Shown here piece after piece: positions 15,201 to 63,967 of a DNA stretch of 64,000 nt. The stretch spans positions 1 to 64,000 of the forward strand of contig NMRA01000953.1 in the NCBI GenBank assembly GCA_002633005.1, given 5' to 3'. The translations under genes and the position numbers were made by a program. The notes under the pieces are model-generated. The model made no database searches, had not been told where the DNA came from, and saw only the letters and a list, made by a program, of their open reading frames with translations. Each line of letters opens with the position of its first letter. The stretch's first letter is position 1. The stretch is from Phoronis australis (lineage: Eukaryota; Animalia; Phoronida).

Positions 15201-18200
15201 ATGTAGCTTGGCTTCACATTATTAGTAAGGTGTACTTTAAATTCGAACGTGAAAGTATAGCCGATGTACACTGGTTGGAAGTTGCTGAAAAAGTCTTGTT
15301 GGTTGCCGCACTGGTTGCTCATCCCAGTGGGTGTCTTGGAGTCGACGTATTCACCTTGTTGGCTCACAGCTCTTGTGAAGCATGAGTGAAGAGTAGGCTT
15401 CAACGTTAAAACTGGAAGACAGGAACAAAAGTAAAGTAGCCTTGTGCAGTCACGCACTTTTTACTGCTTTCACTTTTCCACACAGCAGAAAGCACAAACC
15501 ACCGCCATTGTTTTATACAATCGATACACACAGTATTTTAAATTTCTTTCTATGAAAACATGGGTTTATTGGAAATAAATAAAGCATATAAGTTTGCATT
15601 TGTAGTGATTTCCTTGTGTTCACTGTGTGTTTATTCGCAAAATGAATTTTAATATGATACAATTAAATCCCATACATTCGCAATTTCTCGTGGAGTTGTC
15701 GCGGTAAAAGCCCTGGGCACACTGACAAGACGACAACAAGTTTTGGTCGCCGCACTTTCCCGGCCAGCACTGTGCATCCTTCAGCCAAGAACAAGTTGCT
15801 GGAAGTAAATACCACAGGTTCAAATCTCTTGCAGGCGTGTGAAATAAACAGACAACCTGAAAACTGCTGTTGTATCCGTGACACAATGTTCTTCAGAAAG
15901 CGTACATCCTTGTTTGAGGCTTTTGCAGTAATGAAGACAACTACGCTCGTTTCTTTTTTTCAAAAACATGTTCTGTATAGCGTTCATTTGCATAAAAAAC
16001 CTAAATCATTCATTTGTTTTCTTACAAAAAATGACGAAAAAACTTACCCAAACATTGACCATTTGATAAATAGTAGGCAGATCCTGCCGGGGACTGTAAA
16101 TCGCATTTGGTGCAGGCAGGACGATTTTCGAGGCACAGGTATGATGTACAATGAAGAGGCACGATGCATCCTATAACAAGCCAGTTGTTAGCTATCAATC
16201 GTAGTTTTATACGTGTCAGAATATTATCTGTACAGGAATTCAGAAAAAATACAAACAATGTGCGCGATATGCGAACCCATTTGACGACTACGACGTATAC
16301 TGGCAAATGAAACAAGTCGACTTATCTCATTGCTGAAATCACGAATTCGTATTTCAAGTTGTCTGTCGTCGAGCCCCATGTTACTACCTTTAACAGAAAC
16401 TTCACACAATGTCAGTATTCCTGTCCCTTGGAGTTGTATAAACAAATAGCGACCGTAAACATGGGGATTGCAATGAACAGTATTAGTTGCGCCCTCGGAA
16501 AACCTTTCTCTATAACGGTTACACGTCTGATGCTCCGACGAAATGGAAGAATCGTTCCTTACATCAATGGTGAAGTCGTGTAAGCGGTCACCTACAAAAA
16601 TAAGAACAATGTGTGAAGCAGCTAAAAGTCTCCGGTAACGCATGAGAAAACGATAGCAGGACGAAACTAGCCAGAGACAGTTGATTTCTTTGCAGTGCTG
16701 TAGTGGTAAAATTAGAGGCTAATAGGCGCCCAATAACTACCGTATCCTCTTGGGGGCCAACACCACATAGACAGGAAGGCATGGGTCAGCGTGCACTTCA
16801 AACATTCTCTGAAGGGGGAGGGGAGCAAACACAATTTTAAAGGAAAATAGGAGCCTGTGGGTTGAGTCCTCGGGGCCCTTCGGTACCCTTTTATCCACCT
16901 GGCACCATACATATAGTTGCTACTTTATCTTAAGATACTAATCTAAATTTTCATTACTCGGCGAACATATGTTACTCCGTACGCTTCAAAGACTAACTAC
17001 ACAAACACGATATTACACAAGCACCGATGATTCAATCAGCTCCAAACACTATGTACCCGGCACAATGTACAATGGTCTCATATAAAATGCACGAACTTGC
17101 AATACATGTAGGGTTTTCTTGCAAGCATCTGTTTTTAGTTAATCTTAGTTAGTAAAACACCAAGTACTAGTGGCCCTTCTAAAAATAGAGTGCTTTATAT
17201 AATAGTTACAGAATCTTCCACAATTTTTTTGTCAGCAGTCTAGTTTTTTCCTAGATACCTGATCTGGACTGAGAACTACCCGGTATCAGTAGTTCCGTGT
17301 TGTCGAATCATACGTTTCGGCATAAGGTTGTGGATCGAACATCGAAAGCGGGTGGACTATTGACCTTGCAAATAACAGCGAGCTGGCTGTACAGTTTCTA
17401 CTAGCAAACAAGAGCGTTCGTCTATTACTATCTGATTCATTTCGCTGAATCCTCGTTCACATTCGGCTGTACTGCAAGGAAGAGTCTTAAGGGGTATAGT
17501 TGTCACACAGCACTTGTTAGGTTGTCCACTCTAACCGTCTCCTCAGTCAATTCCTCTGATTGACGTTGTGGCAACCATCTCAAAGAGATTGCAAAATCAA
17601 TACGACTGTCAAGTAAACCCCACTACATGTTAAACACTTTTTGAATAAATTGTCCAGGACTTACACTGTATGGTCGCACGTTGCTGAATATTCGGCAACG
17701 ATGATGACGTCAGTGTAGCAATGCATCGATACCGTGAGCTATTGTATCAGGACCCCAGTATACCGTCACGTACTGTGCGTAGGCGCTACGTTAAGGTGTA
17801 AAAACACGGTTGCCTGCCATACGCCAAACTACACTGTATAACGTAACTTACGGTGTGTAGGCGCTATGTTTATATACCAAAAGGTAGTTGTCTGTGCCTA
17901 CGTGCGCCTACGCCCATCTACACCACTTTGAAGAAGAGAACGAATATATTGAGACAACATACCACAGCAATCTCCTCTATTGGTTATGGTTACGTTGAAG
18001 ATCATGTAGGCAGTTTGTAGATCAACACGCCACCACGGTTTGTATTCCTCTGAGGTGTGAGTACACGAGCTGTCATAATACGTGGTGTACCGAAAGCCGT
18101 CAACAGCATTCGCTCCATCATCTCCACTTGATTGGTCAGTTGGCTTTTGGTATGTTATTCCGTTTGCTATATGGAAATAAATCGTAGGGACATTACAATC

Positions 18201-24200: not shown

Positions 24201-27200
24201 CAGATTAATTTTACTGCAGATTGTCATTTTTATGTTTTGAACACTTTAAGTTGGTACAAATAAACGCGTTTTTTGATGGAGAGTACCTAACGTTTTCACG
24301 TTTTAGCTTCTACAAAAACTTGCACCGATGATGTGCATCACATTTCTACAAAATCAGAAGAAAAAATAGGCGGTAGTCAACTTTTTGAGCTCTAATCGTC
24401 ACACACACGTCACGCATAATCTCAAAAACATAAAATAGTTTAATAATTTTTGACTTCTTTCTAAACAACGGGTATTTCAAAAGCTTTAATTTTTGCGGAT
24501 CTCGACTTTATATATCGACCGCCAGATTCATGAAATATGCCCTATCACTAAACTAAAAAGCTTTTTACCTCTTGAGCACAAAAACTTGATACTGAAATCC
24601 AAGCATGTTCTTCCAAGTTGATCGTTGTTTAAGCACAGCAGTCCTTCTGTTGGGGTACACTTATGTTTAAGTCTCATTCCTCCAGGTACAGGCGTATCTT
24701 GCGTAAATTCTTGACCGTCGGCACGGCATCTTGCTTTCGTTGGGGTTAAGCCTCTGCAAACATCTCCCTGTAAATTTTTATATTTTAGTTTCTGGCAACA
24801 AAGTGGATAACATCAGAAAATTCTTACTATTGTAATAAAAATATAGTACATTTCTCAACTTACTGGTGTGATGAGGATAAAACTTATGGGAATCCCTTCG
24901 AGGGTCGGGAATATTATCACTAGAAACAAAGAATTTTGAAAATTCAACATTTGTGGTGGTCGTTTTGACACCAACAACAGTCAAAGGCTCACCTTCGCGC
25001 AAATATAAAGAGAAATATTGGTATCAAAATGTTAAAGTAGTTTTGCCATCTAAGTCTACAACAGTGTGATCTGGGACATAGGTTGATCTAATAGTCACTA
25101 AATGTATTTATAATCACCGTGACACTAAACTAAATTTTGCTTCTCGATAAGTATGATTTCAACTGAAATATACAGATAAGTTCTCACTTATTGAACCAAA
25201 CTCAAAGATTAGTCCATTTCCATGTCAAGATGACACCAATATCACGGAAGATTAATATATTTACGAACTAAATTCTGGGATTTACTTCGTGTTTAACTGC
25301 TTTATTCCTCAAAACATCGCGATACACCAGAAACTGCAATACATGTACGTGTGTCTAAAATACTTGGACATTTGCCTCCATCCGTGCCCATCAGGGACTG
25401 CTCAGTGAAGCCTAACATGATTAGTCTTCAGTGACTGTAATAACTTACTAAATGATAAAGTTGTTCGGCATCTGCGTTGCCAGTTGGGTCATCTCTGTCA
25501 AACCAACCTGTCCAGAACTCTGAATAAAGCAAAATCAAGCTGTACGATATGTGTTATTAAAATTTATCTACGAATAACCTGTTGATCGATACCAGTAACA
25601 GGGCTCTCGTGTTTTTAGTTCAGGTGTTTTGTGCAGTGGGCCCAGCCATGAGGTCTGCGGACGTATGCACCGTGAATGACACCAGACCACTCGTTTTTGT
25701 TAAGATCTTTTGTGTTATCGGCGAGGAAAGTGCTTGCCTGTTTTAATTTTGTTTTCAAGTGATATACATTTACATGTATTGGAGAATACACAGAACACAT
25801 AAGGAAAATATTACAAACCCAGAAATTGCAAAGCATTATATCTGGACAATACACAGATGAAAGTACATTTAGTAAATATAGAACTACTGTACATGTATAA
25901 GCATGAAAGTAGTAAACGATGTAAGCATTCAAATATTCATAAAATTTTGCTATTACTAAATTATTACAAATGGAATCATGTACAGATATGAAAATGAAAA
26001 GCAACGAGATTTGTAAGCAATGGTTAAAAGTAAATCAAATCATTGTCGAAGTTTAGTATAACATTTGATAAATAAATGATAAAAATGTAACTTTAGTAGA
26101 GATAGCTTTACAAGAATTGAAAGCATTTACAAATAGTTGGTTTTTCATTGAGTGCACGAGAGAGTTTCTCGGGTATTCGATGAGGGGACATTTTAAAAAA
26201 ACATGAGGATAGAATTGATGGTCAATACATTTACAGTTTGAAGAGACATTACTGAAGTTGCAAAACTTGTCGGAGTCGAGGAAAATACGGCATCTCGATC
26301 GGCACATTGCTCTAACGTTTTCGTTGGGAAGCAAGGATTGAGTTGTCAAAATTATGAAAAACAGTTTTAACTGTTCACGCGATAAGCTGACACGAGTAAT
26401 CCGTGTTTTGAGCTGCTAAACAGACTGCATGTAAAACCAATTAGGTCACTGGATAATTTCAACACCTCCGTCTGCCGCCAGATGTCAGGTAACGCAACCG
26501 AACGTGCCGCTATCGAGTAGAACTACTCGATCTAAATTGACACAAAATGGGTTATTTTTGGGTGGCATTCTCCTTTAACTCATTCAAGGAATAAAGATAT
26601 AATTAAAACACTTGCATGAAAAAGAAACGTGAAAATTTGTCGTCGAATAAAATGCGATGCATCCAGATATGAAAGGTAAGCAAACCCATTTTTGGTGGTA
26701 GCGCCTTCCACTGTTCAAAGAAAAGATATCTCATAACCATGCTCAAGTGATTTGGTCGATAGAAAGCCAGACGTAATTTATGTACGTCGAATCCGTCCGA
26801 ATATAGAAATGTGCTATTGTCATGTAAATCGGTCAAGGAACTTCGGAGATAAGGAGATTCTGAAGTGAAATAGATAAGATAGCACTAGAGGCACAACTAC
26901 AAATACATTAAATTCGTCGGTAAGTCTTTGTCCTACAAATATACCATGGCGAGAAAAAGTCAAACGGCCACTACGAGGTAAAAGCTGTCCGAAAATCACT
27001 GTCAATTATGCTCCTCCCACAACAAACACGTATGCTATTTTTTATAATGGTCGTGATTCGTCGGATAAGGAGATGGAGAACAAAAGCAAATTTTTAAACT
27101 CTATCTGTTCACACAAAAATGCCTCTAGGAGGCACCTACCAGACTGAATGGAACAGTCCTCTTTCAAATAGAAACACACGTATCAATTTCAAAAACTATC

Positions 27201-46223: not shown

Positions 46224-46942
46224 CATTGTGACGTAAACTACCAAAGAGTTTGTGTTTGCGCCAACGTGTTGCCGGAGTTCTCTCATGAGACAGTATAAAC
46301 CGTTCATACTATCAAGGTACTACCATCGGAAACTAAGTCCGTAGCTGGTCGCATAGAAATCGGTAGACACGCATCCTTCGTTTACATGTTATAATAATTA
46401 AGATAATCAAAAGTATTTGTCGGTAACCGGCTGATGAGCGCCCAAGGTACGATATGAATGGAATCTGTATTAGGACATCCTAGAAAGAGTCAACAATGGT
46501 AGCGTCCCATAGGTGATATCCATGCGACGCGCTTAGTCCTACGCTCGCAGCATGGATGTAACAATTTAAAGAATGCCTTGCANCATTGTGACGTAAACTA
46601 CCAAAGAGTTTGTGTTTGCGCCAACGTGTTGCCGGAGTTCTCTCATGACACAGTATAAACCGTTCATACTATCAACGTACTACCATCGGAAACTAAGTCC
46701 GTAGCTGGTCGCATAGAAATCGGTAGACACGCATCCTTCGTTTACATGTTATAATAATTAAGATAATCAAAAGTATTTGTCGGTAACCGGCTGATGAGCG
46801 CCCAAGGTACGATATGAATGGAATCTGTATTAGGACATCCTAGAAAGAGTCAACAATGGTAGCGTCCCATAGGTGATATCCATGCGACGCGCTTAGTCCT
46901 ACGCTCGCAGCATGGATGTAACAATTTAAAGAATGCCTTGCA
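46224..46942. repeat. Direct duplication of 359 bp separated by a single N (probable assembly artefact)
   Basis: 46224-46582 equals 46584-46942 except for two substitutions that I could see (catgaga/catgaca; caaggtac/caacgtac). The n is at 46583. Confidence 0.9.
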
Positions 46943-47433: not shown

Positions 47434-47706
47434 TCAGTTTTTAGTAAGCCATGTCATTTCCCAGTTGTGCACGTCAGCCATTCGTTTGTTTCTGACTTCC
47501 GAGAGCTCGACACTTCGACGAAGCCTATGCTTAGCTATTCTAACGACACTGAATGGCGCAATGGAAACTCTACTCCATCTTGGACACTCCCCGGTTGCCC
47601 AGAATTCAGTCGTTCTGGACAGGTTATCTTGTATTTTTTCCTTGTTGACGTTCTCACTGACATGTATTGTGACGAATGAAATGTTTTGGTTGAAAACCAG
47701 CAGAAT
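47434..47706 (-). CDS. Terminal exon of Hedge/MBL/M15 gene
   Basis: cttcag|ATT. Translates ILLVFNQNISFVTIHV...CPRWSRVSIAPF...RLRRS...WEMTWLTKN*. Confidence 0.8.
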   Translation of the reverse strand: MLLVFNQNISFVTIHVSENVNKEKIQDNLSRTTEFWATGECPRWSRVSIAPFSVVRIAKHRLRRSVELSEVRNKRMADVHNWEMTWLTKN

Positions 47707-50700
47707 CTGAAGTGAAACAATATAACACAGCGCTATTAATTTTATTCCAAAAACATAGTGATATTCATCAAAGATTCTTGAGGAAAATTGCGATGTCACG
47801 CTTCAAAAGGTAACCAAAATTCCACGGATTGATACAATAATGAATAATTTTTGTGTGGATAACTATCGAAGTCAGATTCGTGCGATTGAATAACAAATGT
47901 GTAAAACGAAACACACAGAATTACCTTAAGAACATTTCTTAGGGCAGAAAAGTCTCGATCTTTTTCGATGTAGACATTGACTTCACCAACAGCACTCATG
48001 GCTAGAAACTGCTCGAGCAAGTTTAGTGACGGGTTCGGGTTGTCTCGACTGTCATAAATCATCTCTTCAATACTTGCACCAGTCTTCGGCTTGTACCTCG
48101 TCATTAACAGTTCCTCTGAAATAAGCGGTCACAGGTACAGACTGATTCCTTAGGATTTTAAACATATGTAATAGTATGACTGTGCTTACTTTTAATAGTT
48201 GTTAATTTATTGGAAAAAATCCTTGGTAACGAAGTTACGTGTACACAGTTACCTTAACGATGTTCATCACGGTATGCAAACATACATGTACATGGACATG
48301 TGCATGGTGTTGTACGAACAGTGTTGTTTCTAAGAGAGCAAAAATTCTGACAAAATACTTTGTATATACATGCATATACAATGAGTTCCTCAGAATGAAA
48401 TTGACATAATTTTCGAGACTCTGACTAACTTGGCGTTTTTCTCATCAGCCTTTAATTGACAGCTTAGCAATTGTAATAAACCGACACATTTTCGAATTTC
48501 AGTCACACTTTACTTTGAACTATAGCTATTTTTTGTAATGGAACTTCCAAGGCCAAATGTGTTACCGCGATTTTGACAAAGTGCACGTGGCCTCTTTTGT
48601 CAAGATTTTGTTGAGAATTTGTGGGAATTGAAACGTGATCTAATCGAAAAGAAATGAATATTCGATATTGAGCGACGAAACTTAAACAGACGAATTTCGA
48701 TGATCTATGGTTTGGTTTGAAAACTGGTGTTGGCTGCTATGCAACAAGACGACACCGCATGCTTTTCACGTCACTAAGGTATAATTCACTTATCAGACAA
48801 GACTCTAAAGTACACAATTTAAAAGAACACAATCAATTTCTAAACATCCAGAATACCTACTTAGAAACGAGTATATCTGCGTGTTTTCCAAGCATAGCGA
48901 AGTGTCACATGCCAGAGAATGGACGCTTGAGTTCGTGTTCGCTGAATTAAAGAAACTCGTCTTCTCCACGTTTCCAAAAGGAATGCTGGCCTTTGCAACA
49001 AAGTTGGACAGAAACTTCAAGCAAGATGCAACTTTTTTCTCCCATATTTTGCCTAAAATAGAAGGAGCGATTACTCTCTACCATAAAGTTTCCGGTGAGC
49101 TAACCTGTGGCGTTGCTTTACGCTTAACGAGGCCTGTGCCCGAATGTATGAAACAGTCCCAAATAGGGACTAAGTTCCCAAATCTTTTGCGTATTTGTTT
49201 CGCTCTATACTCTTAGGCGTATAGTTTTTATGGCATTATCTTGAGCTCTTTTTTGACTAATGACATCTTCCAATAATATATATATAACTGAAAACACCCA
49301 TAATTCAGTTAAAATAATTAGAAAGTTAGTCCTTAAACTACAGGCGTTGCATAAAAAGATCCATAATAATCATATTTTAATATTCTTAAAAGAATTCAAC
49401 GTGGAGTTCACTTTCGGTTTTTTATCAAAGTCAACAATTGACTTAGTAATATGACTCAAACAGCATAAGAGGGGACAATCAGTATTTTCACAAGCCAACA
49501 AATGCGCTTTAGATTAAGAGAACTTAGTTGAGTCCCTATTTGAGACAGTTTCATGCAACCGGCCACTGGAGCGCGAAAAACAGGCGAACTTGCATTACAT
49601 ACATGTATCCACGGTTTCTTCGTACAGATTTTTGAATTGCTATTGACAACAAAGGATTAATCTTCTATTTTTAAATTTCAAAAAAAAAACAATCTGGCAA
49701 TTTCTCGTCACTTCGTCGGTTTTTCTCCCACAAGACGTAGCCGTATCACATTTCCCTTATACGGGAAATGCGACCTTTTGCCTTTGATGTAAACTAGACA
49801 ATGGCGATTTCAAGAAGTAGCCACACTCCGATAAAGAGGCAATTAAGATATAGTGTATGTCCTAACTGTTTAAAGTTATTTATAAAGGTTTCGTACAGTA
49901 GTATTCAAATATAGCCTAGAATCCTTTTTGGGAAATCGCTTGCTTCAGTGCCTTGCCTCGTACTATGCTGTCGACATCAGATTTGAATTTCAATGACGCA
50001 TGATACTCTTCTGTTAACAGCCATTTTTTCAGTCAACAGTTTGTCAAATATCTGCGTTTATCTTCAATGGGAGAATATTGTGGTGAGCGTACATGTATTT
50101 GAAAAATCTCCTCAGTGGATAAAAGTGAATGACTCTGTATTAGGTGTTGCGAGATGGCGCTTGGGTCAGGAATTGCTTAAAAAATATTTTGACGAGCTTT
50201 TGCGTTGCAGGCTTCTTTAGAAGCGGAGCAATATGATGAAAGCTCGAAGGTCACCGTTTAATAATAAATGTTATGCAGTATATAGAGCCACCATTGCAGT
50301 GAATATCGTCTCCTCTATTCGAGACCAGGCATCGCCGGCCAAAACACCACAGGAGTAACCAAATCACGTAAACTCATCAAAGCCACAAGATGTGAGTGGT
50401 CACTCATGACTACATGTAGTTTGAGGACTCAATTCTAAAGAAACCATGATTAATAAAAACACAAGAAAATCAAAACAAAGATTCACCGAATCCGAGGCCG
50501 GGTCCGCAGTTGGTGACAAAACATTCTTTCAAATATTTTTCTGTCGAGTAGAGCTGGTTGCCTTTGTTTTTCAAATTATCCTTCAACTTAACCACGCCTT
50601 GATTTCGATCCTTGAGAGTTTCTTTACAGAAGTCGATCCTTTTCGAAAATGCTAATCTGAAATTTTTTCAAAGAACAGAAAAAGACTGAGTAGATGAAAT

Positions 50701-53700
50701 TGAGACTGCTGCATAGAACAATGCTTTACAATGTATCTAAGTTTAAACCTCTATCTTATTGTTTTACAGGAATGTAAATATGTGAAAATAGATTTTTGGA
50801 TAAAAGAACGTCCCAATCCGTGATTATCTGACGCCATACAGAACGATTTGAAATCATTGTCGGTACTTCCATTTATTCCAAAGTGAAACAGTTTGATAAA
50901 AACTAACATAATACACAGCAATTAAGAAGAATCTTAAATACAGTCATAAAAACTTTGTGATGTATTTCAGGAAACATCAGTGGGAGTAATACAACGGCGA
51001 TCATTTTTAAAATGTTACTTCTTCTTGCTGAATGGCTGTGAAATGAAGTAAAACTTCTGTCCATATTTTGGTTCCTTGCAAGCTCTGCCATCATTGACAG
51101 GGTCAATGAGAGATCCACCTAAAATAGTCGTGATTCGTAGTTAAAGAGGTAGACGTAATATATGTGTTAATGCTATTAAAGCGGTTAGGATTGTGATGGT
51201 ACATCTTTAAGAGGACAGGCAATGTCATCCATCCCGTCTTACTGTAGAAACAAATCTATTCAAATGAGCTTGTGGTGACAAGTATGGGCTTCGTTTGAAC
51301 AAAGAAACCCATGCACCTCAGTCACGACATGTGTTTATTAACAGTATTTCAACGATACCCCCACGTTAATAATCGTGCATGTAGCTCACGTGAAATGAAA
51401 AAGATGGCGCAACCCTAGTGTTTTGTGGACCTTTTCATTGAGCAGCGAACCCCATCGCCCATCCAAGACGATTCCAATCTACACTAACTTGGTGATAGAC
51501 ACCTTGTATTAAATGTTAAGTAGAACGCAGAAACATGATACCTGCGCTCAACTACTTCTCATAGTTGCTCTTATGATGCATGTGCGGTGAATCGGGACAG
51601 TAAACTTTAAAACATATCCAAGAGAATTGGTAACATGTACCTTTGGTGAAAGTGACACCAACAACTCACGGCATCCCTAATGAAGCAGTGTATATGCCAC
51701 CTCAGTGTACTGTACTTAGCCGAGTTTTACTTAAAGTGTATTAAAAGTAGGCTATAATAGATGGATACGGTGGAATAAATCACATATGTTGCATCTTAGA
51801 AACAAGTGGAACAATACCTTTGTTTACAACACTAGCAAACGACTCCAGGTTCTTAAACCATGGCGTTGCTTCTGCTTCCCACACCTTCATCCGTGCAGCA
51901 TTATCAACCAGTGGCTGAGGACTCAAATCGACGTATAGTTTGTTGCGATGTGCACCCAAACCAAGGGTCATGTGTTCAGTGTTGAATACACGCAGACAAC
52001 TACGAGCCACGACGTGGGCTAAGTCGTATAGTAGTTCAGAATTTGTAACGGACAATTCAACTGCTTGCCCGGTTTGGAAACGATACCGTTCTTCCTTATG
52101 TCGGAAGTCTATGTCTCTATTGTTTATGTATCGCGTCCGGTAGCCTGATCCTTCCAGAATGCGGAAATTTGGAAATTTACTTTTCACGATTTCGAGACAC
52201 TCCAGCAACTTGACGTCCAGTCTAAAATACCTCTTTCCAGGATAAGCGAAGTCTTCGATTAGGAAATGCTCCGACAGATGGAGCTTCCTTTGTGAACCGT
52301 CTAGAAGCTTTATGATGCGACTCTCCTCTTTCAGACGTTTAGGATATGAATATTCATGACGTACATGATCAGGCAAACCTGCTACAAAGAGCTGAGTCAA
52401 AGGGAATGAGACCAGTTCTCCGACCGCGTCTTGTTGTGGCTTTACACAAACCTCTATATCATTGTTGCCGATAACTTTAACGTAGTCGAACCCAGCGCAC
52501 TGTGCCAGCGAGGACAGTCGCGAAAGGTCACTCGATCTCCCGTTCAGTAAGCGAAGCTTCGCAGCTCTGAAAAAATTGCAGTTTGAAACAAGTTGTCGCA
52601 AGCAAATCAAGTCCTGGTGCCTAATTTTTAATTCTTTAACTCTAACTTAATTTTGGTTCAATTGTATAGGTCCAACATATGAGTTTTGTTAGTCTGTGCC
52701 CGAGCCAGTACACGACAAATGTGTAATCCTAGGTTGCACTTGACGACCCAAGCAGCTGTAATTTCTAGTCTGCGCTCAAAATCTCAAATCTGTTCTCCAA
52801 TGTGTAGCTTGAATCCAGGGCTCATCGTGTAATACCTCCGAGTAGATAGAAACATCTTCATAAATCACAACTGATTGCTCGTAACAAAAGGAAGTGTCCA
52901 TTTCTAGTTTTACAGACTCTTGCTCATCATTTTCAGAGAGTATAAGAGATAAAATTAACAACGTTTCAGTAGGCTGTAAACCCGCTTTGCAATCAGCCCA
53001 GCACCAGCAACACCGATAACCACATTATAATCCAGAAACAACGGTGTCATCCAACACTTGCCCTACCTTCCTTCTGTATATAACGTGCTTTCGGATTTAT
53101 CCACATAAGAGTTCGATGTCGGTTCTTTCCAAGCATTCTGGACTTGAAGTGTTCGGGTGTCTGCAAAGAAGCTGGTTAAGTTTCTGTATCACGCTATGTC
53201 CACAAGAACACAGCGCTTAGAAGAATGTCCGTATTAATTCTGTTGTGTATTTAATTTTTGGTGTGTACTAATTTCGATGTTGTTTACTCCGCTTACACGT
53301 ACGCAAATATGTATGTGTTCAAACTTAGCAGTGGGCTTATGGCCTTTGAGGACTTCAACAAAGTGAAAGTAAATTATGTCAAAAATGACATAATTTCTGT
53401 GTAACTTAAGATCGAAGACAAAAATTTGACTTTCTATACATAAACCAGTCTTCTCGGAATTTTCGTCATCAGTCTTAAATTAACCAGAATTTCGGTCGTA
53501 GCTTAGATAATCTTTGGTCTTCTAAGACTTAAACGCCTTAATCTTTGGTCAGTTTTCATGAAAGTAGTCCCAGATTTTATTTAATTGATAATTTTGTTGA
53601 AACACAACTATGCACTAGCAGCAAACGTATCAAAACACATCAGCTGCAGTTTTGCTACAAAATCTCCGCGGCCATTACATGGATAGTCAGTTTACCGCGC

Positions 53701-56700
53701 CCTGCAGTGCGCGGCAACACGCTGTCCAACATTTAGGTTGAGCTCTGATACGCCGTAAAACGTAACAATTTCGTAAAATGTAATGACACTTTACGTCATT
53801 GTTGCATTTCACGTTACCAGGCCTCTCCTAACATGTACAAAGTTGTTAAATTTTATGAAATTGTTACAATTTACGTCGATTGTACATGCGAGAAATATAC
53901 AATTTTTACATTTTACGAAAACGACGTCATACTCCATGGTATTTGTCTTACGGAGGAAAAGGGTTCACACCATTAACGGCTTCTTTATCGGATCGAATTT
54001 TTAGATGTGTCCTGTGCTTTCCATTGAATTTTTATCATGAATATTTTTAGTGTGGTCACAAGTGTACCCCGTACAGTTTCAACTCCAGGCGAAAGGAGTT
54101 TCCAGGATCAAGTAACAACTCTGTTACTGTTGGAGAGTTCTTGCAATCTTATGTTGACAAGTCATGAACCAATGGTGTAACCAAGAAACAATGCCTCTTG
54201 GCGCTTTCTGGGTCTGTATATTTATTGTACTGATTATTCCAAAATAAACACTCAATAAAAATGGTGCATCCGACATTACAGTAAACATTCTTCCCTTGGT
54301 AAGCACAGCAGAAGCAATGACATCGTATTTGTACATGTATATGTTACTAACGCACACGAAGAAAATTGTGGGATATTACATGTATATCGCGATAAGTAAT
54401 ATGCAAGCCAATTTAGACGAAAGGAAAAGTACGTATAGCGTGAACTACTTTTAACGAATCTTTAGTGTTAAGCGGTAACATCTGTATAAATGTCTTTTTG
54501 TTATTGTATACATGTATGATTTGCCTATTTTTTGTACGTTCTCATTGGGAATGGTGACTTACAGTATATGTCCAACTTGTGGCTGGGTAGCAATTGCTAC
54601 AGGTCAATTAATTAAATGAATATTGATTAACTGATTGATTGATATATGTCGTTGCGAATTTGTTAAAAAACTTGAACTTATAAAGTGTGTGTTTATTTCA
54701 TGTAAACTAGGAGCAGTTGTAAACAAATCAAAATATGAAACAAATTTACATGAAATTACTAATTAACAGCCTTCTGCTACTTGTACTTCTGAACTGGCAT
54801 TAGGTTGAGCAGACGATAGGAAGCAAACGTTGTTTTAAAGAAGATTAATGAAAAAAATACCTGTTAAATTTTTATAGAATCAATAAAATAATATCGTAAT
54901 ACAAAACATGTTATACCCATTATCGATTTTTGTTTGCTTTCATTGACTAAATACAACACGGTAAGGACAAAGAAGTATTTGACGTAGTAATACATATATA
55001 TCTACCATGGCAACGACTGATTTATGACTAGTTGGCCAAATAAGGGCGCTGCATTGTTTAGGTTGCGTGTTTGCGTACTTTAAACACAGTTTTCACCTTA
55101 AAGTTCATCAAGTTTGTTGAAATTAAATTTCATTTGATATTTATTTGAATGATACGTTTATGATTTGTGCTATATATTTGGTCCAGTTGTCACATGTGTT
55201 TTTCAATTATCGGAGACTCAAACACCAATGCTGTGAGTGTGAGCATTGGGTGGGGGAGTAGAGTTTAAAAAACTACCGTTACTCTTATAGGTTTAGTCCA
55301 CCAAATACATTACACCTTACGGCATTGTCAAGGATATTTTTCTAGAGATGATAAGGGTACATGTATTTGCTCTATACAAAAATACGGAAAAGTAGTTTTG
55401 TTGTATTTCACGGTGTGATAACACAGATATTTCAAATCCGTACCATCACCAATGTATGATAATGGCTAAGTTGCATTTCTTCGGGAAAAGTCTACAATAA
55501 AATGTTTCATGGCAGTTTCAATTCGGGAGCCAATTTGATAGAAAACCGTTTAGTCCTATTAGTAATACAACCAACGATACCGTGCTTTGAAGTTGCCGCA
55601 AGTCCAAGACAATTTTTAATCTCAACCTCCTCTTTTCCAAAAAGTGGGCCTATTCTGCATCCACAGCTACCAAAGTGTTTCTCACAATATCGTTAATGAG
55701 AACCCCTTTAAAATCCTTTTGAAACAGCACTCGCTGTCCTTTATGGGATGCCCGGTGAAAATATTGAACCATAAATGAGATGATTTTAAAATCTTTGAGG
55801 ACCATGATGCACTAGCACTTGCTAAGAATGTAGTTTAAATTTTGCACTAAGTCCTCGTTCGAAAATGTTAATACTAATAATAACAGTAATAATGATAATG
55901 ATTAGTCAAATTTATGCCGCGTCAACATGGAGGATTTTTCTGTAGAAAAGGCATACAAAAAGGGCCGACCAAAAGAGTGTTTTTTCATAGCATATAATAC
56001 TTTCCAAAATAGTGCCATTTTCGACAAAATGCTATCTCAAATGGTGCCTTTTCTGAATTTCTGGAATTTTTACATAAAATTACTGACTCGATAAATGGGC
56101 AATTTTTTGTCCGAGCCCATTCTCTAAATGAGTAGGTATCCAAATATTCGCCCAAAAATGCTCGAGTACTCCTGACCGTAGTTTTGGTCATTTTCCTTGT
56201 GATATGACGTTGGTTTCGTAAACTGTGTCAATGATACATTTCTCGAACGCGGATTCGACGTAAAATGCAACATGTAAGCAAAATGTAACAACTTGCTCCA
56301 TTTTAGAAGAGTCTTAGCAACGTTCAGTGTAACAATGACGTAAAATGTAACAGTTGTTACATTTACGAAATTATTACATTTTATGGCGTATGAGAGCTCA
56401 AATGATCAGTCACAACATACGTATGGATTATAGCGATAAGATTTAGTAACGGAAAAATTCCGCGATGACGAATCTTTATTTCACTATAGAAGTGTCAGTA
56501 CGTTCGATATTTAGGTCTCCTAAATGTAAAAAGATAAACCTCTCCATTCTTGACCAGTCAGGAATGCAAGCCGCCTCAAACGAAAAGCCAGCCGGAAGGA
56601 CATCATTCTGTCAGCACATCTCTCCATGTTGTCATCATCTTCGTCTGCATTTCTGCAGTCCGGACACGGTGCACCTTCAACGCCACACCATTTGCTTGTT

Positions 56701-59700
56701 GCTTCTCCATTAGCAAACGAAACGTCATTCATGTAGTAATAGAAAAGCCTAGCAACATAGAAGTTAAATTACTTTGTATGCGTCAATTTCTTTGTGATGG
56801 TATCGCATGCATACACAGTCACAGGCATTTCGAAGGTTACTGGTTACGCGAGCTGGAAGGGTAGGTGAAAAGTGTTTGTGCAGCTATGACTTATTCTTAA
56901 TCGTCTTCTTCAGTTGAGCAGTTGACCAGCTTCCAGTTTGGTTACTGCTTTGATGTTTCACGGAAAAAATAACACCAAGTGTCACTGTTTTAACCTTTGA
57001 AATTTTATCTTTTGAGGTAGTGATATAAAATTTATGTTATACATTTGCTTTGAAAACCATTTTTAAGGCGGATGTGTATTGAATTCGAGTTTTAAAAAAT
57101 GTCAGAGCCCAAGATTCAGAGTGCTTATCTCTACACTGTCTATACTGTGGATCCTTTTGTTCAGCCTATTATTTTTAGTCTTATTTGGTTATGAATTGAC
57201 CATAGACTATTTATTCATGATATTTTGTTCCATTGCCACGGTGCAAAATTGTGAAGAAGTACAAGCAACAATACGACAGACACAATGAAAGGATGGGTGC
57301 ATTCAGCAACATACGGGACGGCACTAGATTACAGGTCTTCTTCCACTGCTCGTGAGCTTACTACTGTATTCAAGTTTCTGAATTTTAGGCAGGTTTGGTG
57401 ATGACTATACAAACCCCAGTCTCTACTTATAAGTAGAGACGGTGGCAATGCCATGAGGCGTTCCTACGGGGGAAGCTTTTCGCTGAATTATGCCTCTGAC
57501 TCATTAAACGATTGAAGTCACGTTGCTATTTTTTCATTTTGTGCATAGAGGGAGACATTAGGAGGTCGTCCTTCCAACTTGAACCAATACTGCCGCAATT
57601 AAACTTTTTGGAGCAGTCATTCGTCCAGTTGCCCAAAACGGCAGCTAGCCATTTTTACACTCCTCGCGACAAGATAAATAACGTCATACGGCTACATCTC
57701 AGCAAAAATACTTAGGAGGAAACCTCCATGCATTAGTTGTTTAGCGTGTATTGTACAGTTCTCAACTAAGGAAATGAAATTGCAACACACAATGCAATGA
57801 GAATTTGAAAATTGAACCTTTCTGATCAAATTTGAGAAAATGTTGTCCTAAACGCCATGTAATAATTTGAATAACATACATGTATTTAGCATGTGATTTG
57901 TTGAAATATTTGACTGTCAAAGGTTACTGCAGTTGTGACTTTTTTCCGTTCACAATTTGTGAGAATACATGAACTACTTGTAATTCGATAACACAGAAAT
58001 TACGAGAGTTAATATATTTTTACTAGCATAACAACAATTGCTTCCTTTCTCGGAATAACAGCTAACATACAATTGCGCAAAATCACCCTCAAGTCATCCT
58101 TATACTAATTGCATACAAGCTGCATCGAATAGTACCTGTGAAACCTTTCATCGTCTCTTGTGATTGGAGCAGCTATTGGAAGACAAACGTCATCCATCGA
58201 CCATTCTGCATCGGTAGACTTCCCTTCACTTAATTCAGGAAATCTATCACCACACCAGCTTAGACTTGGAAAATCACCTGCCGAAAATAAAAACCGCTTA
58301 GAATCCATTTTGCTTTTAAACTTTCCCAAGATAACATCAAAGTTTATCAAAATTAACGTGCCTACCGCCACACAACTGTGTTTGACGGCATTGCCACAAC
58401 GAACTGACTTTCTTCAAATTCCAGATTAGTGCAGTGCTAAATTTGTGTTTTTAAAGGATGCTGTTCTGAATCAGTAAAGAAGTGGTACAAAATTGAACTT
58501 ACGACCAGTGAAAACAGGCTTCACGTCCACTTTTTTCGTTGAATAATCAACATCTATTGTCACAAGGTTCACGGCATTCTCGTTTTGCTTGTGTGTGTAT
58601 AATGCCCCGCTGCTACCAGTCATAACAAATTTTCCAGAGGAATTTCCACAGAGGGCAGTTGGTTGAGTCCTGAATCGAGCATCAGAAGAACTTGCCTTAA
58701 GTAAGTTTTCTGAATCTAAGACCTCTTGTAAGACCGAGCAGGCTGGATTGCGATAAATTAAAGTAGGATCGCCGGACGTGATTACGACTTTTGGCTTAAC
58801 GGCACTCAAGAAACTGCCAGTGTTAGCTTCACTACGGTTACTACCGTGACGCCCAAGCTTGTAAACATCAGCAGTGACGTCAGTATTAAGCTTAAGCAAG
58901 TCAACTGATTGTTTTTCAGAAACATCGCCGACAAACAGCATTTTGAAATGAGCATTTATCAATTTCAAGACCAGGCCACTTTCAGAAGATTTAGATCCAA
59001 TTTGAGAAGACAAAATCTGCAACGATACTCCTGGGCACACAGCTTTCTCGGGACATTGTTGTGCTCCAAGACATCGTTGAATTTTTATATGAGTAAATCG
59101 TTGTAACGTTGAAGACATCTCTCTATTTCCAGAGGACGAATAGTACAAGTTGATGGACGGTAATTGTCCCAATACATCCGTCAACAGGTTCTTGCGACCA
59201 TCATCTGTTCCCGTCAAGAACACGTGTTTTATTCTATGAACATTCTCTTTTCCCATAAACGTAGAAACATGGGAGCTTTGCCAGAAACCTTTATCTGAAG
59301 ACGATCGGGAGCCCATATCGACAAGTGTGATGTCACCGTTAGGGCACTGTATTATGGTAGCATCACCTTCGCCTACAGGGAGATCAAACACTCGCAGCTT
59401 CTTTGGTTGCGCTTTCGGCATAACTGAAATCATACCACAAAAATAAAAATATAGTGATAAGTCTGGACACGAGGACTCCTATTTCCATATTCAAACATGT
59501 ATATGTGTAAGGTAAATGCAAAAATACAATAATATTAATAAATCAAATTGGCATTGTACCAACGCTTTTTAAAAATTAATACAACTTTTCAATGACCCAT
59601 TGTTAACATTCAAAAACGCAAATCAAGGCAATGCAAATCAAATTAATAAAATTGTGTCACATCTTCTCATACTATGATTTAATATTACGTGTACATGTAC

Positions 59701-62700
59701 CCTGAAATGTACGAATACTGTCAAAACATGAACTGTGACCCATTTGATCACTGCTTACTTAATTGGGCCACTTCGTCTGGTGGAACGATATACGATCCCC
59801 CAATTCCTTCTGTCAGGACTTATATCAGTTTGATAGCATATTTTAATAATATTAAAATACTCACTACTCAAGTATCTCGTGTTTTTGGACTGAAGACTGG
59901 GTTGAACACCTACAGTTACGCCGTGTTTACTTCGTTTGACATTGCAGAAATTTGCACATGTTGCAAGATCTGATAGTTTATTCATAACGAGAGCGTGGTC
60001 TTCCGCTGAAGACGAAGACGATGTCACATCAAGGGTCACCAGACGACCTTCTGCCACCATATCAGACGGATCAAGCGGATTTTTGACGATTAGCTTACCT
60101 ACAAAATCAAATTAAGTAATTGTGGACAATCCAAGCTATTTGGTCTAGAAAATGCGGCGTGGTGTACAACATGTTAGTGATATTTTTGCTTATTCATGTA
60201 TTTGGAAGCGTGCAACAAACGACCCAGTTATTAAGAGATACTTACGATTTTCCCATCCTGTTTCTTTCCTTATAAGTTTACTAAACTTCAGAACCATAGA
60301 CGCCATGTTGGGGTGCATTGGGGGTGTGCTTGATGTGAAGACGATATTTCCTTCAGATAATGACATTAGTCTAAACAAGAAAAATACAAGTTTAAATAAT
60401 TCATTTGCAATAAGAAAAACATGTTGGTGTTTGCTGAATTTAAAAATCCCCGTGATATTTTGATCCACGTCGGTTGTAATCCTAATTTCGGAGATAGTAT
60501 TTCATCAATGATAAGGTAAAACTTATTCCAACAATCAAAACTATTGGTTGGATTGACACAACATCGAGCACAACAAAACAATTTTTCAAGATGGCAATTA
60601 CACAGCTATACATGTACTACTTACATCGTGCATGCTGAGCGACAACAGCTGTCAAAATTTTAAGAAAGAATCACGCCGAAGTGTTTTACCTGTTTTTCCC
60701 CGATTTAGTAGAGGAAGGGTTGCAAGGTTTGACTGCTTCCACAGCGCAAGTTAGCCTTTCAGCGCTAGCGAGGTACAAGGGTTTCTTCAAAAGCGAAGTT
60801 TTCGCTGTCTGCAATTCCGTCAGAATATCCCATTCCCTAAGAATATACTGAGCTGTTAATTAACGACCACACCCACCTTATTCATAATGTTTTGTTGGAC
60901 AAAAAAAACATAGTCGAAAGTATTGTCAAAACTGAAAGCTAACTTACCATAATGTTCCAATGACAGACATATTTAGTTTAGTTGGTTTCATTTCCCACAC
61001 CATGTCCAAAGTCAGATTAGCGTTGAATGTTCCAACCATCGCATATCCCATTGCTGACTGAACATCAAATTTCATCTGCACAGTGGGCTCAACTCTGAAG
61101 TAGAAAGAAGTACATGTAACATTCACGAATTCCATGATGGGTCCAATTATTCGTCAATAGAAATAACTGGTTTTTTCGTAAAATGATATTACGTGTTCTT
61201 AAAATTGTATATTGCCTCGACTAATTTGTAAACTTACCTGACTGTTAATGGTGCATTGAGCGTCATCTCAAATATTGACTCAGCCACTGTCCACTTGAAG
61301 GCTGTTTCGAACTCAACCTTAAAAGTATTTCCGATAGTATCAAAAACAGAAACGTACAGTTCACCTGACTTGATATCTCTTATGCTTGCTTATTCGACAC
61401 TCAAACAATAAGCTTTCTTTAAAGATCAAGATTTCCCACATTACGGAGGTTACAATAAAGACACATACACCATGTTTCAACAAGTTTGTGGAATTAAATA
61501 TCAATGAAATACTATGATGTAAAGGTATTCAATTACCTGCGGGAAAATACTGACAGTCCCCGACACGTCTGCTGCTTTTTCGACTACTGATTTGCTAATT
61601 GTGACAGGTGCATCGTCGCGCAAAACATCAATCTTCAACATCCGATCTGACACTTTTGTACTTGCTAGTTTCCACACGATGGTGGGAAAACAAAGTTTCA
61701 GTCAAATGGTGAAACATTCCAGTGGCGTTAAGGAATATAACATTGACTCAATGAACCAAGCAACTAACACTGCCAACAACTTTTATTTCCTTTTTGCACT
61801 CTAACCACATCGAAGCTCAACATGTAAATTCGCAAACTACGTACATACTACACCATTGCAAAGGAGAAGTAAATATCAGTACATGCATGTACATGTATTG
61901 GATGTCATGGCCGGCATTTAGTCGATCATTTGTTTTACCATTATCTCAATAAATTGAGAACTGTATCTTATGTTATGGAATAACACTACTGTATGTTAAA
62001 CGTGTACTTACTAACAGTAAATCTAGACGTTGTGTTAAATGCTGTGTCCAGAGACATTGCAGCACTTGCTTCAAATGAAGCATTTAGCCACAGCTCAGCC
62101 GTTGAAGACACCACCAGGCTCACGTCTTTACTGACTGGGATTTGAAACGTCTGGGGATTTTCTGCTCTCCATAGTTGCTGGAGGACCTCAGTGCTGAATT
62201 CTTCTTTGGTGGTGAGGGACATCGTATAACTCAAGCTTGCTTCCACATCAAACTGTAATGACACGGACACTTCATTATTGCTTCTGTTAGTATCATTTAA
62301 AAATATCATTCAAAATATTCGACTTCAAGCCTTTGATGAACTCAAAGGACAGAACTTTGTCTGAATCTGTCAAACTATGGATTATTTTGTAATTAAGTAA
62401 AACATGTCACCAATATGGGAAGGCGTCGACATTTATGCATAACTGAATCGGATACTTGACTGGTTCAAGTCACGTTGAAAACTGCTGAACACACACGTAT
62501 AATTATGAAAACGTTAGTATGGAGACTGTTATGGTTGATTGGGTTAAAAGTTTGTTCAGGGTCGGCAGCTGATTACTTACCTGTAGCATGTACTTTTCAA
62601 ACACAACCCGCTGATCCTTGTCTCGACTAATTTTTAGCTCACTGAAATATCGAATACATCAATGATACATGTAGATGAACATTGATAACCAAAGCGTATA

Positions 62701-63967
62701 ACGAATTCGAGTTTAAAATTTTCTACTTCATCATTTCCCTTATTTTGTTTTCTTTTTCCAGTCGATAAATAAATTATCTCAAGGCAAGGAAAAACAGAAT
62801 TAGATATTGGCTTGAGCTGATGGCTCTTCCATACAATTGGGTGTTAATAATTATGGTATGGGTATCAAGTGTCAGTCTTTTCACATGACGTCATTGGCCA
62901 CACCACGTGATGTACATGTTAAGTCTGACAAAATCTCTATCGCGATGTAAGATCGAACTTGGGACATTATGATAAGACGCTCTTGTCCACTAAGCTACTG
63001 GAACCACCTGCCGATTACAGAAGTCGTCCTTGTAAGAAAATTTCCAAACACTTCTTACCGTACCATATGAACGCGATGAATGACAACAGGACAATCGTAT
63101 GCATTTACATGCATCAGCAAGTTTGAGTAAGATGCCTCCTATAACGTGGATTGTATTTCTGTGGTCGACGATTGGTCCCAGTACACTGTTAGCTCAATGG
63201 CCCAGAGCTTCTGCACAATTAGCAGGAAGTCACGAGTTCGAGGCTCAGTCAGAACAGACATTTTTTCAAAATTTATTATAGGTAACGCAATAAGACCAAT
63301 AAACATGTATTTCGTGTAAGGAAATCAATAATTCTTACTGATTGGCTCTTACAATTTAGAAAACGATGTTGGACTTTGAAATGTCTTTAAGTAATAACGA
63401 TACTTTATACCGACTGTTGTAGTACATGTATGTCAATGTGACAAGCGGCCTCAACTAGTTGACAGCAGAAAAGAGGTAGCTTATGTAACACTATGAATAG
63501 GTGAAGTATTACTTACAAAGTCACTGCAGTTGCAAAATTTGCAAAACACGACGCGCAGTTTATTTCTGCTCCAGTACTGGTTCCCTTCTTTACGTCATCA
63601 TCTTGTTCTTTTTTTGCCATTCGGAGCCACTCATTCTTTTTGACATCGAATACAGCTTCTTTGCGCTTCGTTAGTCCAACAGTGAAAGCACTTCCCGCAT
63701 TACCGCTCTTGCGGTCATAGTTGATATCTTTAATGAATTTATTTGAACAGGACTTGTTCAAATATATAGGGAAAATTTCTGAGAACACGTCCGCCTTAGA
63801 AAGCTTCTGGCTTTCCGTAGACCAGCTAGACGTTGCACTTCTCTTGCTTCGATGGTATTCACTTGTCCCGGTGTGATAGAATATGTCGACATTTTCAAAC
63901 ACGTCGACGAAACTGAAATTTGTACCTTTCACTATTTTATTACTGTATATTGCAACGACACCGTCGA
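47434..63967 (-). CDS. Multidomain protein: beta-rich N-region, Hedge-like 1, ComEC-type MBL fold, Hedge 2, peptidase M15A-like, C-terminal region (5'-partial)
   Basis: Exons 63517-~63967, 62581-62641, 62012-62252, 61537-61664, 61238-61317, 60948-61094, 60690-60836, 60246-60370, 59865-60098, 59759-59809, 58503-59423, 58136-58277, 56540-56748, 53067-53160, 51818-52566, 51019-51118, 50487-50656, 48861-49052, 47925-48115, 47434-47706 (TGA). All are GT-AG with compatible phases and an open frame (~1,570 aa). Confidence 0.85.
47925..48115 (-). CDS. Exon of Hedge/MBL/M15 gene
   Basis: tttcag|AG...AAG|gtaat. Translates ELLMTRYKPK...NPNPSLNLLEQFLAMSAVGEVNVYIEKDRDFSALRNVLK. Confidence 0.82.
48861..49052 (-). 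CDS. Exon of Hedge/MBL/M15 gene
   Basis: ttttag|GC...A|gtagg. Translates KIWEKKVASCLKFL...SVHSLACDTSLCLENTQIYSFL. Confidence 0.8.
49137..49565. mobile_element. MITE, PIF/Harbinger-like (~430 bp)
   Basis: TIR of ~60 bp: tgcccgaatgtatgaaacagtcccaaatagggactaagttc versus the reverse complement tggccggttgcatgaaactgtctcaaatagggactcaactaagttc. Flanked by CTG on both sides (3-bp target-site duplication). Confidence 0.7.
50487..50656 (-). CDS. Exon of Hedge/MBL/M15 gene
   Basis: tttcag|A...G|gtgaa. Translates LAFSKRIDFCKETLKDR...YLKECFVTNCGPGLGF. Confidence 0.78.
51019..51118 (-). CDS. Exon of Hedge/MBL/M15 gene
   Basis: ttttag|GT...AA|gtaac. Translates GSLIDPVNDGRACKEPKYGQKFYFISQPFSKK. Confidence 0.7.
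51818..52566 (-). CDS. Exon: end of Hedge domain 2 plus peptidase M15A-like (LAS fold) domain
   Basis: RAAKL...LSRLSSLAQCAGFDYV...IEVCVK resembles Hh RAVDI...LARLAVEAGFDWV...IHCSVK. It is followed by LSEHFLIEDF...LDVKLLECLE...SGYRT...N...GQAVEL...LGLG...LYVDL, resembling Peptidase_M15_3. Confidence 0.88.
53067..53160 (-). CDS. Exon, Hedge domain 2 core
   Basis: ttgcag|AC...AG|gtagg. TRTLQVQNAWKEPTSNSYVDKSESTLYTEGR resembles Hh [24 protein letters not shown]. Not reported in the ORF track. Confidence 0.88.
53740..56399. mobile_element. Non-autonomous DNA transposon (~2.66 kb) with long diverged TIRs, intronic
   Basis: The left end gagctctgatacgccgtaaaacgtaacaatttcgtaaaatgtaa... matches the reverse complement of the right end, gagctctcatacgccataaaatgtaataatttcgtaaatgtaac..., with similarity extending ~190 bp. 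No transposase ORF is evident. Confidence 0.7.
56540..56748 (-). CDS. Exon, Hedge domain 2 with Cys-rich insert
   Basis: tgctag|G...G|gtttat. LFYYYMNDVSFANGE-[ATSKWCGVEGAPCPDCRNADEDDDNMERC]-ADRMMSFRLAFRLRRLAFLTGQEW resembles Hh [42 protein letters not shown]. Confidence 0.88.
58136..58277 (-). CDS. Exon, start of Hedge domain 2
   Basis: cggcag|GT...AG|gtact. APITRDDERFHR resembles Hh GKITRNSERFKE. Confidence 0.85.
58503..59423 (-). CDS. Single exon encoding a ComEC/Rec2-type metallo-beta-lactamase fold domain (degenerate active site)
   Basis: LRVFDLPVGEGDATIIQCPNGDITLVDMGS resembles the family pattern VxFLDVGQGDAxLI...LIDxG. Also SGLVLKL...KMLFVGD, DVYKLGRHGS and FLSAVKPKVVITSG. 921 bp, phase 1-1. 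Confidence 0.88.
59759..59809 (-). CDS. Micro-exon (51 bp) linker
   Basis: ctgacag|AA...A|gtaag. Translates GIGGSYIVPPDEVAQL. Phase 1-1, so it can be skipped in frame; the preceding intron is only 55 bp. Confidence 0.55.
   Translation of the reverse strand, partial: KELGDRISFHQTKWPN
59865..60098 (-). CDS. Exon, second half of degenerate Hedge-like domain 1
   Basis: ttgtag|GT...A|gtgag. KLIVKNPLDPSDMVAEGRLVTLDV...MNKLSDLATCANFCNV...VTVGVQ resembles Hh KLRV...HYEGRAVDIT...LARLAVEAGFDWV...IHCSVK. Confidence 0.78.
60246..60370 (-). CDS. Exon, first half of degenerate Hedge-like domain 1
   Basis: gtttag|A...C|gtaag. Translates LMSLSEGNIVFTSSTPPMHPNMASMVLKFSKLIRKETGWEN. Confidence 0.75.
60690..62641 (-). 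CDS. Six exons of the beta-strand-rich N-terminal region (62581-62641, 62012-62252, 61537-61664, 61238-61317, 60948-61094, 60690-60836)
   Basis: Canonical splice sites and consistent phases. The peptides alternate hydrophobic and polar residues (FDVEASLSYTMSLTT, ELWLNASFEAS, VEFETAFKWTV, FNANLTLDMVWEM). Confidence 0.78.
62950..63008 (-). mobile_element. tRNA-derived SINE-like head (decayed)
   Basis: Minus strand ggtggttccagTAGCTTAGTGGacaagagcg...caaGTTCGATC gives an A-box/B-box layout. No complete cloverleaf. Confidence 0.4.
63188..63255 (+). mobile_element. tRNA-derived SINE-like head (decayed)
   Basis: gtTAGCTCAATGGcccagagc...gtcacgaGTTCGAGGCtcagtc gives A/B boxes with imperfect stems. 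Confidence 0.4.
63517..63967 (-). CDS. Most 5' visible exon of Hedge/MBL/M15 gene (acceptor uncertain, 63967 or 63942)
   Basis: 139-aa ORF with RSKR and INCASC. The donor TT|gtaagt is phase-matched to exon 62641. Confidence 0.78.

Follow-up and report, generated by a model that had tools for sequence, protein, structure and literature searches.

The name Hedglet was introduced by Jägers and Roelink (2021) for a family of proteins with a Hedge domain, the N-terminal domain of Hedgehog (Hh), and the supplement of their paper lists XP_002607850.1 (PMC8052667). In the accessible text of this paper, Hedglets are placed in lophotrochozoans, amphioxus and echinoderms, are called catalytically dead and enigmatic, and are suggested to derive from Hh because all their carriers have Hh (PMC8052667). 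The literature searched, mostly papers outside subscription, contained the term only in this article and its preprint, and yielded no description of the M15/CD38 architecture or the MBL fusion reported below. Here we describe a Hedglet gene on the minus strand of a 64,000-nucleotide stretch of the Phoronis australis genome (contig NMRA01000953.1, positions 1 to 64,000; hereafter the window). Judged by sequence, the encoded protein is a member of this named but uncharacterised family, as a variant with an inserted MBL domain. The initial annotation of this DNA did not recognise the architecture as a known family; the family had in fact been named, since XP_002607850.1 of the Hedglet supplement (PMC8052667) is P0069 among the matches to exon 14 of our gene, and 750 residues of the window model align with it at an E-value of 2e-68. 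Our protein, homologous to the published Hedglets, shares with them a Hedge domain free of Hint and VWA and the loss of catalytic residues. The published work differs in having used only a Hedge motif of ~105 residues, and its accessible text holds no M15A-like or CD38-like domains, no two subfamilies, no sponge or choanoflagellate members and no MBL insert (PMC8052667). We propose, with a probability of roughly 45%, that the gene encodes a two-Hedge Hedglet with an inserted ComEC-type exon, which is likely secreted, would be dead in all five enzyme-derived domains and would bind extracellular glycans multivalently, most plausibly those of the bacterial cell wall.

The predicted protein consists, in this order, of a β-rich N-terminal region, a first Hedge domain, a ComEC-type MBL domain, a second Hedge domain, an M15A-like domain and a CD38-like domain, with no Hint or VWA. 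The domains were scored with family profiles built without the window protein, and all coordinates are on the minus strand. Hedge 2 (exons 11-14, 52434..58176; E 1e-46) is full length with its Cys-rich insert and is directly followed by an M15A/DD-peptidase-like LAS domain (exon 14, 51867..52391; E 5e-36); the exon 14 query also matches two proteins with Peptidase_M15_3 domains (E 2e-5 and 5e-4). Hedge 1 (59865..60370; E 3e-8, covering profile positions 64-159 of 160) is degenerate and truncated, and is devoid of the Cys-rich insert. The Cys-rich C-terminal domain (exons 15-19, 47434..51118; E 5e-83), missed by the initial annotation, has a predicted CD38/ADP-ribosyl-cyclase fold and is followed by a basic furin-like site, then by a short Trp-containing tail. 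The N-terminal region (exons 1-7, 60690..63912; E 4e-21) is common to the window protein and the molluscan two-Hedge subfamily and has a furin-like RSKR site near its start; in a model of the Nucella homolog (pLDDT 77) it forms long β-strands, with no clear match in the PDB (best Z 5.7). A homology of this region to the N-terminus of the choanoflagellate relative was rejected, 6 of 150 shuffles scoring higher and hhalign giving a probability of 0.2%.

The fold evidence comes from the AlphaFold model of the octopus homolog P0008 (pLDDT 81; 36% identical to the window protein over 697 residues), transferred via the family profiles. The Hedge domain of P0008 superposes on ShhN with a Z of 19.0 and a root-mean-square deviation (rmsd) of 1.8 over 148 aligned residues, and its M15-like domain has the LAS fold of the Peptidase M15A member 1lbu, a Zn DD-peptidase (Z 10.1, rmsd 2.4, 116 aligned). 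Its C-terminal domain resembles CD38 (Z 11.1; Foldseek E 5e-6), the ADP-ribosyl cyclase 3zwm (Z 10.9) and CD157 (Z 10.3), thus the Tox-ARC fold at Z 10-11 with 184-205 residues aligned; it differs from these proteins by a low identity (9-15%), an rmsd of 3.7-4.2, the lack of a sequence-level match and its fusion behind LAS domains. The initial annotation had read the locus as a third kind of Hedge protein, Hint-less and VWA-less, with three LAS-fold units: a more degenerate Hedge copy, then a ComEC-type MBL domain, then an Hh-N-type Hedge 2 and an M15A-like domain, with no Hog or VWA partner before the gene ends at TGA 47434. The reading as a third kind of Hedge protein holds, and this domain order is confirmed by the profile and structural matches for each unit, and the spliced frame runs through the M15A-like and CD38-like domains to that stop.

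Detection by profiles, as the initial annotation had envisaged it, succeeded with the family profiles and with TIGR00361 for the MBL exon, but not with single exons in Pfam: only one of 14 single window segments matched anything, HH_signal at a non-significant E of 0.12. The Hedge domains of the homologs exceed the Pfam HH_signal cut-off. Hint, VWA and cadherin had no Pfam match in the 14 window segments, and VWA and cadherin had none in 38 matched proteins scanned. The profile of alignment A1 retrieved only Hh proteins from the PDB sequences (25 matches of 25), with no CD38 and no M15, and the Atlas comparison of the C-terminal domain was uninformative (best 0.75). The window protein holds 31 Cys and 10 sequons, none of its 19-residue stretches exceeds a hydropathy of 1.5, as a transmembrane segment would, and most of the 13 homologs inspected start with a hydrophobic, signal-peptide-like leader. 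Hedgling and the choanoflagellate Hedge-VWA proteins are likewise described, in the accessible text of PMC4054682, as large extracellular, Hint-less proteins with a catalytically dead Hedge, found in sponges and choanoflagellates. The window protein differs from Hedgling in having no VWA, cadherin repeats or transmembrane segment, and in the M15A-like domain that follows Hedge.

The MBL domain is carried by exon 10 (58503..59423), which matches ComEC structures (30bt_A; E 5e-11 over ~230 residues), the TIGR00361 model (E 8e-12, far below that model's cut-off) and, in Atlas, Lactamase_B/ComEC clusters at 0.94. In contrast to ComEC-type MBL domains, five of eight candidate metal ligands are changed, the competence membrane domain is missing and the whole domain lies in one animal exon. 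Since this single exon is intron-free, in phase 1 at both ends and located where homologs carry the linker between Hedge domains, our data suggest that a ComEC-type MBL entered the gene by exon shuffling. The domain is absent from 38 long relatives and from 73 collected proteins, and on this comparison it is a lineage-restricted insertion and not a feature of the Hedglet family. Word-index searches with the exon, run at longer and near lengths, returned nothing at E<=0.001 among 2,481 and 515 candidates, which is weak evidence, and metagenome scans with the exon and the Lingula protein returned no locus. The first 47 residues of a short Lingula model resemble the tail of exon 10, at the correct position, with a score of 43; this score was reached by 13 of 5,000 shuffles of the tail and 43 of 5,000 of the whole exon, 15 control stretches scoring 17-23, which hints that the insertion may be shared with Lingula.

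The window is eukaryotic DNA of ~39% guanine and cytosine, in which the gene model was obtained by splicing exons by their coordinates. The gene (47434..63912) comprises 19 exons in the window, all introns being GT-AG, and encodes 1,527 codons plus a stop in one frame ending at TGA 47434; the continuous frame of the initial annotation was thus recovered, but with 19 exons instead of 20. From high to low coordinates, exons 1-5 lie at 63912-63517, 62641-62581, 62252-62012, 61664-61537 and 61317-61238, exons 6-8 at 61094-60948, 60836-60690 and 60370-60246, exon 9 at 60098-59865, exon 10 at 59423-58503, exons 11-14 at 58277-58136, 56748-56555, 53160-53067 and 52566-51818, and exons 15-19 at 51118-51019, 50656-50487, 49052-48861, 48115-47925 and 47706-47434. 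The donor of exon 9 is uncertain, because five of the six alternative listed donors tried (read-through ones excluded) leave the frame open. A gene start at 63967, as first annotated, was abandoned: at 63914 the reads pass from the window to an exon upstream of it, therefore exon 1 starts at 63912 and the gene extends upstream. From the homologs we estimate that ~120-130 N-terminal residues are missing from the model.

Four same-species RNA data sets (raw runs X1-X3 and contigs X4) were aligned to the window. Two of the three raw runs cover exons (320 aligned reads for X1, 194 for X2), X3 gave 39 partial repeat matches only and X4 three short contigs. The first mates of X1 and X2 lie on the plus strand over the exons, consistent with a minus-strand transcript in a stranded library. 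The gene is transcribed and spliced. Ten of its 18 junctions were read directly (1/2, 5/6, 8/9, 10/11, 11/12, 13/14, 14/15, 15/16, 17/18 and 18/19), covering both the passage from MBL to Hedge 2 (10/11, 58503/58277, 5-6 reads) and that from Hedge 2 to M15; the 7/8 junction is indicated indirectly by a loose end in 6 reads, and seven (2/3, 3/4, 4/5, 6/7, 9/10, 12/13 and 16/17) are absent among the joints listed from the reads. No joint bypassing the MBL exon is among them either. Six of the seven unread junctions sit where the gene is collinear with single homologous proteins. The one-transcript structure of the initial annotation thus stands for the MBL/Hedge 2 and Hedge 2/M15 joints, but the Hedge 1/MBL joint was unseen. 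Two genes, one with the N-terminal region and Hedge 1 and a separate one with the MBL, Hedge, M15 and CD38-like domains, would agree with the missing 9/10 joint and with a read-through stop of exon 9 at ~59757. Such a split is highly improbable in our opinion, as single molluscan proteins run collinearly through exons 1-9 and 11-19, the phases match, and the bin holding the 9/10 intron is shallow (0.68 and 0.65, versus 6.0 and 1.4 in the next bin), a low depth that disfavours a terminal exon 9. We base the 9/10 link on phase, flanking collinearity and this low intronic depth.

To assign the zinc positions, the Shh register and the H-x6-D/HxH definition of PMC6027127 were used. Hedge 2 has Y/K/E at these positions, Hedge 1 has V/T/T, and the M15-like domain has F/E/Y, the latter replacing the ligands of Peptidase M15A. 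Across the family, the full triad is found in none of the 46 aligned Hedge domains (first His in 24, Asp in one, last His in one), and the Asp of the M15-like domain is kept in 4 of 61. According to these alignments, and with the changes in the MBL described above, all three LAS domains and the MBL of the window protein have lost their zinc ligands. As none of the LAS units keeps the triad, they are likely not peptidases; since the Cys and core residues are conserved from the choanoflagellate to amphioxus without it, the folds appear to be under selection without catalysis.

The CD38-like domain is likely inactive as well. At the position presumed to correspond to the catalytic Glu of CD38, 25 of 35 proteins have Arg or Lys, the window protein having Arg, and 7 have Glu, so that this residue may be absent here. 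The domain could nevertheless be an active ecto-NADase or ADP-ribosyl cyclase, the dead LAS and MBL domains serving to target bacteria or matrix, and the CD38 fold of the homolog model, a Glu or Asp in 23 of 35 proteins at the presumed regulatory-acid position and an invariant Asp/Glu (35/35) after the central strand, five residues before the presumed catalytic position, would all fit this possibility. Given the Arg/Lys at the presumed catalytic position and the low identity to CD38, we consider it improbable.

The conserved folds with emptied active sites suggest binding rather than catalysis. The protein would be secreted, as the signal-peptide-like N-termini of the homologs and the lack of a transmembrane segment suggest, furin-type processing could occur at the basic sites, and the emptied LAS clefts may retain peptidoglycan peptides or proteoglycans uncut. 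Peptidoglycan is cleaved by M15 enzymes (PMC6027127), and ADP-ribosyl cyclases are reported to have reached animals from bacterial toxin systems (PMC3482391). We favour the bacterial cell wall as the putative ligand because (i) bacteria have counterparts of the LAS, ComEC-type and cyclase folds alike, and (ii) the choanoflagellate member has an additional M15 peptidase, whose zinc motif looks intact. The M15-like domains of the family also match an endolysin PHROG (E 3.5e-5).

Several points weigh against this proposal: (i) the Hedge, M15A and CD38 folds were modelled on homologs (octopus P0008; Nucella for the N-terminus) and not on the window protein; (ii) the 5' end of the gene, including the signal peptide, lies beyond the window; (iii) the exon 9/10 junction, from Hedge 1 to MBL, is absent among the joints read; (iv) the position of the catalytic Glu of CD38 is presumed and does not come from an alignment, and the invariant Asp/Glu could be catalytic; and (v) a host ligand would be just as possible, Shh itself binding host matrix. 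Along this last line, the protein might be a secreted structural or adhesive matrix component that binds host proteoglycans through Hedge and has no antimicrobial role. Its secreted, Cys-rich character and dead enzymes would suit such a role, Shh associates with the matrix according to the accessible text of PMC8052667, and the neighbouring gene encodes a large lectin/mucin-type protein; but the matrix association of Shh requires the zinc centre (PMC8052667), lost here, and the companion domains stem from bacterial cell-wall or conflict enzymes, which makes this explanation rather unlikely. A role as a ligand, decoy or co-receptor binder of the Hh pathway, freed by furin cleavage, could be imagined from the close superposition of the Hedge 2 homolog on ShhN and the basic cleavage-type sites. 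In contrast to Shh, Ihh and Dhh, however, the window protein has no Hint/Hog, its M15A-like and CD38-like domains continuing up to the stop, both Hedge domains are internal and without the N-terminal peptide that contacts Ptch1 (PMC8052667), the zinc triad is lost and most of the calcium acids, judged by eye, seem to be missing. Furthermore, Hh is reportedly lacking in the lineages of the sponge and the choanoflagellate that have the cassette, and a pathway role is distinctly improbable.

Among 1.84 billion representatives, 59 proteins matched exon 14 at E<=0.001, and the word-index search gave one Nucella protein. Thirty of the 59 were looked up and 23 carried a taxon, a sample and not a census: molluscs, the brachiopod Lingula, the annelid Owenia, hemichordates, echinoderms, amphioxus, a sponge (P0037, Oscarella pearsei) and a choanoflagellate (P0031, Craspedida sp. 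UC1), with no cnidarian, arthropod, nematode or vertebrate among these 23. The family profiles were applied to every relative longer than 450 residues, 38 proteins with near-identical cluster members included. Hedge is directly followed by the M15A-like domain in 38 of 38, and the same C-terminal domain comes next in 37, the Lingula model stopping short; the Hedge-M15 order of the initial annotation therefore recurs in other proteomes, without the MBL. Two Hedge domains are present in 12 relatives, another 24 show the order M15-Hedge-M15-C-terminal, and the last two are partial. A quick IQ-TREE analysis of 27 core regions, without Lingula and near-duplicates, places the window protein as sister to a set of nine two-Hedge proteins, each of them from a mollusc (SH-aLRT 100 and 96), and the sponge and choanoflagellate rows form long branches between the two subfamilies. 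These two proteins are single automated predictions, for which contamination is possible, although each is divergent (23-29% identity to the window protein) and carries extra domains of its own. P0037 combines the cassette with trypsin and PLAT domains, and its Hedge keeps two of the three zinc ligands, being the only one of the 46 with the Asp; stretches that looked amidase-like or peptidoglycan-binding-like by eye had no Pfam, PHROG or PDB support and were not used. In P0031 the cassette is fused to C2 and to an extra Peptidase_M15_4 (E 3e-10), whose H-x6-D...H motif looks intact. P0016 (Saccostrea echinata) has an insert of ~300 residues (~597-891) that splits Hedge 2 and may be a gene-model fusion; it looked lysozyme-like by eye, but had no Pfam, PHROG or PDB match, and this impression was not used.

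Several other features of the window were observed. Introns near 49100-50250, 53700-54300 and 56200-56700 show both-strand reads and loose ends, with opposite-strand joints between ~53780 and 56230-56360 and both-strand reads reaching exon 12, which indicate dispersed, partly inverted repeats in these introns. At ~46230-46940, ~360 bases are repeated almost identically in tandem, one N separating the two copies and RNA loose ends lying at 46584, which is likely an assembly artefact. Downstream on the same minus strand, a very large multi-exon gene occupies positions 1-~44000, with many repeated fibronectin/Ig-like modules recognised by eye, F5/8-type lectin domains at 16227-16718 and 17901-18200 and a Mucin2_WxxW at 24531-24812 (Pfam; 4 of 12 segments matched).

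The still open question of how the Hh ligand arose is usually discussed with Hedgling and bacterial Hh as its two standard players, and Hedglet, regarded as an enigmatic oddity that molluscs and basal deuterostomes had derived from Hh, was left aside. The initial annotation considered the window gene relevant to this question, and the relevance is stronger than it could show, because sponge and choanoflagellate members exist; their predicted cassettes run against the published Hh-derived view, and they suggest that the Hedglet family may be older than Hedgehog. Bürglin (2008) reported an Oscarella 'hh-like' expressed sequence tag (EST) with neither Hog nor VWA after Hedge in the accessible material (PMC2362128). 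Its continuation (Os_hhlike, file S10 of PMC2362128), including YFRLSPGVLYC, resembles by eye the family linker and the M15-like consensus. Since this EST differs from P0037, Oscarella likely has at least two Hedglets. In Salpingoeca rosetta, every Hedge protein pairs Hedge with VWA according to the accessible text of Fairclough et al. (2013; PMC4054682), so the Craspedida protein would represent a different arrangement. A broader scenario, which we put forward as doubtful, has Hedglet as a third Hedge lineage that arose before animals, of the same age as Hedgling and ahead of Hedgehog, in which an ancient secreted M15A-like/Hedge/M15A-like/CD38-like cassette would have been kept from choanoflagellates to amphioxus as a bacterial cell-wall sensor, still recruiting bacterial-type domains such as the MBL; the sponge 'hh-like' EST, which has long been cited for the origin of Hh, would then be a Hedglet, and the Hh ligand fold would have reached the ancestors of animals as a module for binding microbes, its morphogen role coming later.

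These data are of interest mainly at the family level, to which the window gene gave access; this gene itself would be a case of exon shuffling of a ComEC-type domain into a Hedglet. Hedglet joins Hedge to a second LAS domain, of the bacterial M15A type, and to a predicted CD38-like domain that had gone unnoticed, and it opens peptidoglycan binding and NAD turnover to biochemical tests in oysters, sea stars or amphioxus. With the whole cassette in a sponge and a choanoflagellate, Hedglet would be a third ancient lineage that any model of the origin of the Hh ligand must place.

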